Positions 2,576 through 3,224 of a stretch of DNA of 5,875 nucleotides are shown here, piece by piece. Under the pieces are notes generated by a model, which saw nothing but the letters and a program-made list of their open reading frames with translations, was not told where the DNA came from and ran no database searches. The position numbers and the translations under genes were made by a program. The stretch is taken from the IMG/VR virus record IMGVR_UViG_2529292977_000021; one strand, given 5' to 3'. Origin of the DNA: a virus (taxonomy: Duplodnaviria; Heunggongvirae; Uroviricota; Caudoviricetes). Positions within the stretch are counted from its first letter, which is position 1; each line of letters starts with the position of its first letter.

Positions 2576-3031
2576 ATGTATTTTTTGAAAAGCCTTTATC
2601 AGGCTCATGTATTAAATGTTGCAGCAACAAACCGCTGGTGTAACAGCCCCGAAATGCTCCCGGATTACAGAGCCTGGCTGCGCGCCGAAACATACCTTCG
2701 TCTCGACATATTGATTAGCGAACTTCAAAAAGAGACTGCATCCATTCATAACCTTCAGGGTATCGACGCTGTTCGCATTCTGGTATCGCGCCATAGTGCT
2801 CTCTCAATAATTGAAGTGCGTCATCTCTCTTTTTCTGAACTGATTTTCTTGCTTCAACCAGCTCTGGAATCAGCGAATATCCCGCCGGAAGTGATCCAAT
2901 ACCCACCTCATGTTGACGAGCAGTTACAAGATGTGCCATACAACCAGCGTGCTGGATTGACTCCCTGCTCAGAGGCTGAATGGGATCACTCTCTGCTGAA
3001 GAAATACCAAGATTTGTATAATCCTCAATAA
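2576..3031 (+). CDS. Hypothetical protein (151 aa), antisense to the replication operon; candidate moron gene
   Basis: ATG at 2576 preceded by a perfect AGGAGG (2564-2569) with a 6-nt spacer and a perfect TATAAT (2532-2537) upstream. Codon statistics are weaker than the overlapping minus ORF (position-1 purine about 47%). No clear terminator after 3031. Mutually exclusive with the 2715..3224 call unless both are genuinely expressed. Confidence 0.3.
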   Translation: MYFLKSLYQAHVLNVAATNRWCNSPEMLPDYRAWLRAETYLRLDILISELQKETASIHNLQGIDAVRILVSRHSALSIIEVRHLSFSELIFLLQPALESANIPPEVIQYPPHVDEQLQDVPYNQRAGLTPCSEAEWDHSLLKKYQDLYNPQ

Positions 3032-3224
3032 GCCCGGCACACGCTTCTGCATCAGCCAGCTTTATTCTGGTTTCCTTGCGCTGTTCTCTGGCTGACAAAC
3101 GCCAGAGCAGCGCATTAGCTTTATGTATCAACCACTCTGCCAGCTCCACATCAGATAAACCGCCACGCCAGATGTGCGGACTGTTTTCGTAAACGCTCAG
3201 TGTCAATTTTTTGTCATTACTCAT
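2715..3224 (-). CDS. Hypothetical protein (169 aa from ATG 3224; ORF extends to GTG 3275) between the cII-like gene and the initiator
   Basis: Same strand as the operon; ATG at 3224 is 14 nt after the ydaT-like stop. Codon position 1 is purine-rich (about 58%, G about 34%), a coding-like signature. No recognisable motif and only a weak SD. Overlaps an antisense ORF with better expression signals, so the call is uncertain. Confidence 0.5.
   Translation of the reverse strand: MSNDKKLTLSVYENSPHIWRGGLSDVELAEWLIHKANALLWRLSAREQRKETRIKLADAEACAGLIEDYTNLGISSAESDPIQPLSRESIQHAGCMAHLVTARQHEVGIGSLPAGYSLIPELVEARKSVQKKRDDALQLLREHYGAIPECEQRRYPEGYEWMQSLFEVR

Follow-up and report, generated by a model that had tools for sequence, protein, structure and literature searches.

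Comparative sequence evidence for a compact mobile prophage cassette with two convergent genes sharing 317 bp on opposite strands

The virus DNA stretch IMGVR_UViG_2529292977_000021 (Caudoviricetes; 5,875 nucleotides (nt), hereafter the window) raises the question of what occupies the interval between ydaT, the gene for a CII analogue, and the gene of the replication initiator, and on which strand this interval is coding. A first-pass annotation had placed there one uncharacterised minus-strand open reading frame (ORF) of 169-186 amino acids (aa) at 2715-3224, and had regarded expression of the plus-strand ORF as something that would refute it. The minus-strand ORF, here called gene M, does exist and is, as judged by sequence comparison, a real and conserved gene. 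The plus-strand ORF, here called gene P, turned out not to be an alternative to it, as both are coding and overlap antisense. We found that the interval is a compact mobile cassette of ~730 bp with two genes, not a single gene, and the earlier interpretation was thus partly supported.

M and P converge, and their 3' ends overlap antisense over 317 nt (2715-3031). Within the overlap, the first codon positions of the two genes face each other, the second position of M lies opposite the third of P, and the third of M opposite the second of P. Since each gene's third position faces the other's second, the hypotheses in which a single gene is coding predict opposite substitution patterns. We have compared DNA from 13 distinct lineages of Escherichia coli, Salmonella and Klebsiella/Enterobacter-type prophages (referred to by L numbers where needed), and six independent close pairs were pooled for the codon-position profiles, which are given as substitutions per site. 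Beyond the overlap, both genes carried their own signature. In the M-only segment (180 nt, 60 codons), 56 substitutions fell at the third position of M vs. 17 and 11 at the other two, with 0.047, 0.156 and 0.031 substitutions per site at positions 1, 2 and 3 in P numbering, the middle value being the third position of M. For this segment, the nonsynonymous and synonymous differences per site (pN/pS) between the window and L002 were 0.26/0.72. Over the part of M outside P (its first 64 codons), pN was 0.013 vs. a pS of 0.143. In the P-only segment (46 codons), 35 substitutions were found at the third position of P vs. 12 and 10 at the others (0.037, 0.031 and 0.110 per site at positions 1, 2 and 3), and pN/pS between the window and L002 was 0.28/0.91.

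The profile of the overlap was near-even, with 0.048, 0.066 and 0.078 substitutions per site at P positions 1, 2 and 3 (counts of 29, 40 and 47; chi-square against uniform, p ~0.12). Sorting the overlap sites into classes gave 0.036 changes per site that altered both proteins (pNN), 0.088 that altered only P (pNS) and 0.107 that altered only M (pSN), the both-altering changes being 2.4-3 times rarer than those affecting one protein. In OLGenie-style counts, selection on M gave an NN/NS of 0.41 (bootstrap confidence interval (CI) 0.26-0.63) and selection on P an NN/SN of 0.33 (0.22-0.50), with both intervals below 1. If only P were coding, the class that alters P and is silent in M, which falls mostly at P second positions, should evolve at least as slowly as NN. 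It was 2.4 times faster, and single coding was therefore excluded. For pairs with M in both lineages, the synonymous divergence of P was ~0.9 in the P-only part but decreased to ~0.45 within the overlap; it was ~0.8 there in comparisons with L005, which has P and no M. Based on these comparisons, we conclude that M and P are both protein-coding and that both frames are under purifying selection in the shared 317 bp.

The two frames were also compared for their integrity. In 12 lineages neither frame contained a stop codon, and the other four frames carried 1-9. The 13th lineage, L068, encodes the most divergent M found (27% identity) and has a P-like ORF opposite to it, with a 290-nt overlap. 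The M frame was open over 257-323 nt in the 13 lineages, and both frames persisted at protein identities as low as about 27-35%. When synonymous codons were drawn at random for an unchanged P protein, the probability of an open M frame was 0.0035 for the window and 0.01-0.49 elsewhere, and the reverse test gave 0.01-0.19 per lineage. The pair thus shows three of the features that characterise antisense dual coding, namely frames open beyond chance, purifying selection in each frame and coding outside the overlap. On comparative grounds, M/P is a rare and well-supported case of two proteins encoded on opposite strands.

M extends from an ATG at 3224 to a stop at 2715 and has 169 aa. Initiation at a GTG at 3275 would lengthen it to 186 aa; the start kept by the homologues is the ATG (M-S/N-x-K-L/V/I-T-L). 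The gap between the ydaT stop and M is present as described earlier and measured 13 nt instead of 14, while the distance of "about 220 bp" to the initiator proved accurate, being 217 nt with the initiator start at 2497. This start, and not the first possible ATG at 2608, is the one on which near-identical RefSeq loci and a PHROG alignment beginning at residue 38 agree. The first-pass statement that M has "no recognisable family" held for Pfam, NCBIfam, PADLOC and the PDB and failed for PHROGs, where M matched phrog_8304, a family of unknown function, over residues 1-169 of 169 (E 4.2e-120). The same family was matched by 20 of 20 diverse M homologues. For M and P alike, Pfam (E up to 0.1), PADLOC (E up to 1), PDB (sequence search) and BFVD searches gave no match, and for M none was found in NCBIfam. 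Full-length homologues of M and P were detected down to ~50% identity in the first search and further with profiles, and clustering at 50% identity left 22 representatives of the M family, in which residues 4-145 form a conserved core.

The remote homology and structure checks proposed for M hence gave a family, together with a fold predicted with only moderate confidence (predicted local distance difference test (pLDDT) 73, predicted template modelling score (pTM) 0.41). In this model, a long helix at residues 25-70 is confident and the overlap-encoded part is weaker. Five M residues inside the overlap are invariant (Y69, G73, S75, P113 and L122), and the motifs there are among the best conserved in M. 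Strong Shine-Dalgarno (SD) sequences precede M in the Salmonella and Klebsiella-type loci, and the ATG is conserved. Since the SD is weak in the window (GGGT), translation of M is likely coupled to that of ydaT here. That P alone is real and M a shadow ORF kept open by the codon choice of P, as RefSeq would have it, appears highly improbable to us. PGAP annotates just P in every genome inspected, P folds very confidently, and an open M frame would be expected by chance with a probability of 0.2-0.5 given the P protein of L002, L054 or L061. However, the third-position bias in the first 64 codons of M, its conserved start codon and SD, and its family of 22 representatives all speak for a gene on the minus strand, and the selection evidence from the overlap applies here too.

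P is, again from comparative data, a real gene. It scored 105.7 bits against NCBIfam NF033230 (cut-off 70; profile positions 3-141 of 142) and corresponds to the RefSeq CDS WP_000273724, "ECs1072 family phage-associated protein," the sole gene that RefSeq annotates in the interval. With profiles, 29 homologous proteins were retrieved in Escherichia, Salmonella, Klebsiella, Enterobacter and Yokenella, the most distant at 33% identity. The AlphaFold2 (AF2) model of P is all-helical (pLDDT 89.6, pTM 0.86), with the overlap-encoded two-thirds as confident as the rest, and this predicted fold has no known relative. The opposite assumption, made in the first-pass annotation, is that only M is real and P is a misannotated shadow ORF. 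M does follow the operon direction, and its PHROGs family covers its full length. Yet the first 46 codons of P outside M show the third-position bias given above, its GGAGG SD core is found in all 18 aligned loci, its model reached high confidence from just 24 sequences, it has stayed intact and conserved in loci that lack M (L005) or carry a frameshifted copy, and NN/SN is well below 1 (0.33). This alternative is barely credible.

In the 217 nt that separate the M stop from the start of the initiator lie the candidate promoter of P, its ribosome-binding site and its first 46 codons. The SD core of P sits within the near-constant sequence AGGAGGTTC (18 loci aligned). Of the 12 lineages folded, 9 had a small predicted hairpin in the P leader (-6 to -11 kcal/mol), which could modulate translation. 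The candidate sigma-70 promoter includes the block TGGTGCCGAAC (2510-2520), conserved in nearly all lineages. The -10 position reads TATAAT, TATTCT or an extended-10-like TGnTAGCCT across lineages, the Klebsiella-type loci having TTGGTG, 17 nt and TATTCT. Both the conserved -10 and the upstream block were found by eye. The sole terminator-like site is a weak one at 3401-3428, and an Rfam search of the interval returned no RNA family.

The M frame is open in all tested lineages but two, and the fate of M and P differs where M has changed. In the Salmonella loci L005 and L006, P is present and M absent. M is frameshifted in L007/L008, to 83 aa, and in CFSAN027343, with P intact in these loci, and it ends 20 codons early in L003/L004. 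Some non-O157 E. coli have a 1-nt deletion at about codon 10 of M and an unchanged P. Because P is intact where M is absent or frameshifted, P appears to function without M. Decay of M is evidently tolerated, as is that of lytic-operon genes in cryptic prophages.

The L005 locus holds a further arrangement (4463-5190; also L006, 628-1174), in which another gene of 151 aa comes after P and has a near-copy of the P leader (...AACAGAACCTAAGGAGGTTCGACATG) in front of it. The 3' end of this second gene is overlapped by a 138-aa antisense ORF over ~240 nt. We have considered these two ORFs as M/P homologues and rejected this, as no homology to P or M was detectable. The P leader thus resembles an expression element that is portable, and the layout of convergent, overlapping genes may be a recurrent one.

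The loss of M also bears on the idea of a toxin-antitoxin or abortive-infection module, where one of the two proteins would neutralise the other and the antisense overlap would provide control at the RNA level. This would suit a two-gene mobile prophage cassette with complementary mRNAs that adjoins a known paaR-paaA-parE type module, and the constant integrity of P beside an M that can decay would fit a harmful M and a protective P. However, neither PADLOC nor Pfam returned toxin or antitoxin matches. P has been under purifying selection long after the loss of M in L005, which argues that it is not solely the neutraliser of M, and P is tolerated with M knocked out, so that it is not a toxin needing M. 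Type II systems are recognised by constant co-occurrence of the partners and by similarity to known families, and neither was found here. A strict toxin-antitoxin relation is disfavoured, and we regard such a module as quite unlikely.

The cassette extends from the TGGTGCCGAAC block upstream of P to just upstream of the SD of M, and homology between cassettes stops just outside these limits. It was found in four contexts: between ydaT and initiators of differing types in E. coli, in Klebsiella-type prophages between cro and a CP76-type cII, in Salmonella with Cox on one side and Ash/ExoVIII on the other, and in L007/L008 beside the repressor gene. M was co-directional with the neighbouring early genes in all four, and P opposed. 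The ydaT family was present in 3221 of 5426 complete E. coli genomes and the cassette interval in about 456. The notion of an inserted slot was borne out by three related prophages, including CP-933P, in which ydaT is followed by the initiator after 22-71 nt with no cassette. Accordingly, the comparison of synteny that had been suggested gave a twofold answer, the ORF being conserved in 13 lineages and the cII-to-initiator interval being empty in those three prophages. A tblastn search with M, the distant M and P against 50,697 phage genomes gave no match, P was found among plasmid records in only four large "plasmid" records, and a scan of GTDB representative genomes found nothing.

The mobility of the cassette also bears on what it may do. 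A role as replication accessory, offered in the first-pass annotation, is unlikely, since the linkage to replication genes is inconstant (Cox and Ash/ExoVIII in Salmonella; the repressor and int-xis in L007), whereas its view of the interval as an accessory unit and not part of the core replication machinery agreed with our results. Its other suggestions, namely exclusion, anti-defence or modulation of the lysis-lysogeny decision, may apply. Control of the cassette by YdaT through a site at 2711-2728 was considered and dropped, as the match had two mismatches and was not conserved in other E. coli lineages.

How the two genes would be used can be outlined from their arrangement. P would be made in the repressed prophage, from its own promoter and a strong, invariant ribosome-binding site near the initiator start, and M once the early operon is derepressed. 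The M and P mRNAs would be complementary over at least 317 nt and the polymerases would converge. Complementary mRNAs and converging polymerases imply that each transcript should suppress the other, by transcriptional interference and RNA duplex formation. Our best guess is thus P in the lysogen and M after induction, in a mutually exclusive manner. Transcription from the P promoter may also lower the expression of the downstream replication genes, with 217 untranslated nt following M. The early-operon transcript has no translated frame over this stretch (2498-2714, minus strand), which is unusually long for an operon, and a Rho-dependent polarity site is possible there. Because P is confidently folded and persists without M, it should have a function of its own, probably an accessory role that benefits the lysogen. 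The asymmetry in model confidence between P and M suggests that the P frame is the older one in the overlap and that the tail of M was overprinted. The C-terminal part of M would probably have arisen by extension into the antisense of P and then been retained, next to a conserved N-terminal domain. Taken together, a dual-coding mobile cassette with probably mutually exclusive expression, and with P as the older frame, is the reading that we consider likely.

Several observations weigh against it. The naive dN/dS of M in the overlap is ~1 (0.6-1.5), with selection visible only in overlap-aware counts. The overall substitution rate in the overlap is not below that of the flanks, each protein tolerating more amino-acid change there. 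The product of the open-M-frame probabilities over eight deep lineages was ~5e-10, a significance overstated by shared ancestry. The promoter of P is a candidate proposed from its sequence, with a weak -35, on account of which none was called by the promoter scan at its thresholds. ECs1072 gave a signal in uninduced O157:H7 Sakai, with a >4-fold drop at stationary-phase entry (PMC2241611), on a microarray that may not distinguish the strands. This signal and the conserved SDs are the support for translation of M and P, and are indirect.

The shortening or loss of M in some lineages is a further point of this kind, since the C-terminal part of M may matter little. Only the N-terminal 64-83 residues of M would then count, and its last 105 codons would be tolerated read-through antisense to P, the sole selected gene in the overlap. 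Such an account draws on the 83-aa M of L007/L008 and the early ends in L003/L004, on the fall of AF2 confidence in the overlap-encoded part of M, and on the naive dN/dS range. What decided us against it is that M-silent changes at the second positions of P were more than two times commoner than those altering both proteins, the opposite of what P-only selection predicts, as also expressed by the NN/NS of 0.41 and its interval. Moreover, the M frame has been kept open over 257-323 nt in the 13 lineages, the five invariant residues lie inside the overlap, and the synonymous divergence of P recovers in the lineage without M. We therefore hold this account to be unlikely, and favour dual coding along the shared segment.

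A stronger version of the dual-coding reading is an ancient mobile switch cassette, in which two proteins encoded on opposite strands of the same 260-320 bp would be made in mutually exclusive prophage states, P in lysogeny and M after induction. Regulation would then reside in the overlap itself, and P transcription would also throttle the downstream early genes. We put this forward as a tentative possibility, and not as our leading expectation. If true, M/P would rank among the deepest-conserved and best-supported antisense coding overlaps known in bacteria or phages, and P would represent a new protein fold.

Three phage arrangements resemble parts of this design. In lambda, oop is a 77-nt non-coding RNA made from pO, a leftward-type promoter at the start of the initiator gene that directs transcription antisense into the cII side. 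The P promoter in the window has the same position and direction, but P encodes a protein of 151 aa, and some contexts of the cassette lack cII and O as neighbours. Coliphages 186 and P2 have face-to-face promoters with convergent lysogenic and lytic transcription and mutually exclusive expression. In these phages the overlap is confined to a short stretch within the 5' regions of the switch, whereas M and P overlap in the 3' coding halves of two accessory genes, for which interference would be expected. Finally, prophage morons are normally single genes with a terminator and their own expression signals. Like them, the cassette varies in location (the four contexts), and is absent from CP-933P and other ydaT-type prophages, and P runs against the surrounding operon with an apparent ribosome-binding site and a candidate promoter of its own; unlike them, P comes tied to another gene that lies on the other strand.

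The antisense overlapping genes of enterohaemorrhagic E. coli named below are said to be taxonomically restricted. Antisense overlapping genes in general form a known but contested class (PMC9927249, PMC8850804, PMC7457138). Those of E. coli O157:H7 (ano, asa, oloz0137, oloz4542 and oloz5029; PMC5960689, PMC6294744, PMC9927249) resemble M/P in that the frames lie on opposite strands and standard annotation keeps one of them. They differ in being 177-552 nt long, partly or wholly embedded in a "mother" gene and mainly supported by expression, and none of the three oloz genes lies in a phage region. In contrast, M and P each have a non-overlapping N-terminal part, overlap 3' to 3' and are supported by comparative evidence down to about 27-35% identity. 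The Pseudomonas aeruginosa genes olg1 and olg2 are long antisense ORFs with evidence of purifying selection in the overlapping frame and of translation (PMC8850804). In contrast to M/P, they lie within chromosomal genes, are described as evolutionarily novel and do not form a mobile multi-genus cassette.

Long antisense coding overlaps in bacteria are disputed, and most reported cases are short, young and mainly supported by expression. M/P adds the missing kind of evidence, with two independently anchored genes and 317 bp open and selected in both frames across several genera. RefSeq and NCBIfam hold P and PHROGs holds M, no annotation examined carries both, and none of the RefSeq records inspected has M, a sign of a systematic blind spot of annotation. 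The literature search found only a microarray table mentioning ECs1072 and no paper on the M/P pair. As CP-933P lacks the cassette and its switch has already been dissected, the two types of prophage offer a natural with/without comparison.

The features of the window that surround the cassette are collected in Table 1.

Table 1. Positions of the cassette, its parts and the neighbouring early genes in the window
Feature	Positions	Strand	Remarks
Cro/YdaS-like gene	3660-3962	minus	early operon
YdaT gene (CII analogue)	3238-3663	minus	Pfam YdaT_toxin and phrog_163; 97.8% nt identical to CP-933P region (PMC8630535)
ydaT stop codon	3238-3240	minus	from the sequence
Spacer, ydaT stop to M start	3225-3237	minus	13 nt; weak SD GGGT
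Whole M/P cassette	2508-3237	both	~730 bp; unit found at differing prophage positions
Gene M	2715-3224	minus	169 aa; phrog_8304; early-operon direction
Dual-coding segment	2715-3031	both	317 nt; last 105 codons of P and last 105 codons of M
Gene P	2576-3031	plus	151 aa; ECs1072 family NF033230; antisense to early operon
P Shine-Dalgarno, GAGGAGG	2563-2569	plus	6 nt before ATG; GGAGG core in 18/18 aligned loci
P leader hairpin, GAACC / GGUUC	2557-2572	plus	predicted; SD in loop and 3' arm
Candidate sigma-70 promoter of P	2509-2537	plus	-35 CTGGTG 2509-2514, 17-nt spacer, -10 TATAAT 2532-2537
Replication initiator	1400-2497	minus	phrog_1701 and phrog_3729 profile matches for initiator and loader; start from RefSeq
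DnaC-like loader	647-1393	minus	IstB/DnaC Pfam matches

The early operon on the minus strand reads cro/YdaS, YdaT, M, initiator and DnaC-like, and the plus strand of the right side of the window carries a repressor and a RelB/ParE-type pair. The CP-933P prophage of EDL933 shares 97.8% identity with the part of the window that runs from 3238 to the right end. This homology ends exactly at 3238: CP-933P continues from ydaT to its own initiator after 22 nt, whereas the window has the extra unit between the two. The M/P interval itself is 100% identical to O157:H7 strains. A Sakai-type O157:H7 origin of the whole window was rejected, as this identity covers only ~2500-3400 and the immunity region is CP-933P-like. 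None of the complete E. coli genomes in the collection contained at least 80% of the window contiguously. The window is thus a mosaic of modules, each of which is common.

Within the right part, the trio of repressor, RelB-type antitoxin and ParE-type toxin (3997-4923) is ~98% identical to the paaR2-paaA2-parE2 region of CP-933P, so that from 3238 rightwards a CP-933P-type immunity region is joined to a different replication module. The PaaR2/YdaS/YdaT switch of the CP-933P region has been studied experimentally (PMC8630535). A perfect YdaT operator, TTGATTTTCATGAATCAA, lies at 3653-3670 and fits the published TTGATT-N6-AATCAA site (PMC9986795). It is placed exactly at the junction of the cro/YdaS-like gene and ydaT, where one would expect the YdaT-activated P_RE-like promoter that CP-933P is described to have.

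A Glu-Gln repeat, QEQEQEQEQEKEQEQ, lies in the initiator at 1950-2100. The RefSeq locus L001 apparently differs by 6 bp within this gene, as deduced from a coordinate offset, and the repeat is a likely place of this difference. The N- and C-terminal halves of the initiator have different relatives, with a mosaic joint near 1971. At the right side, a minus-strand ORF of 68 aa (5354-5560) contains two CxxC pairs (CPEC...CKNC). Its position is roughly that of plus-strand DUF1391/ydfB genes in related RefSeq records (~5200-5500), and other records have nearby a minus-strand "ECs_2282 family putative zinc-binding protein." Annotation pipelines may choose different strands at this locus too.

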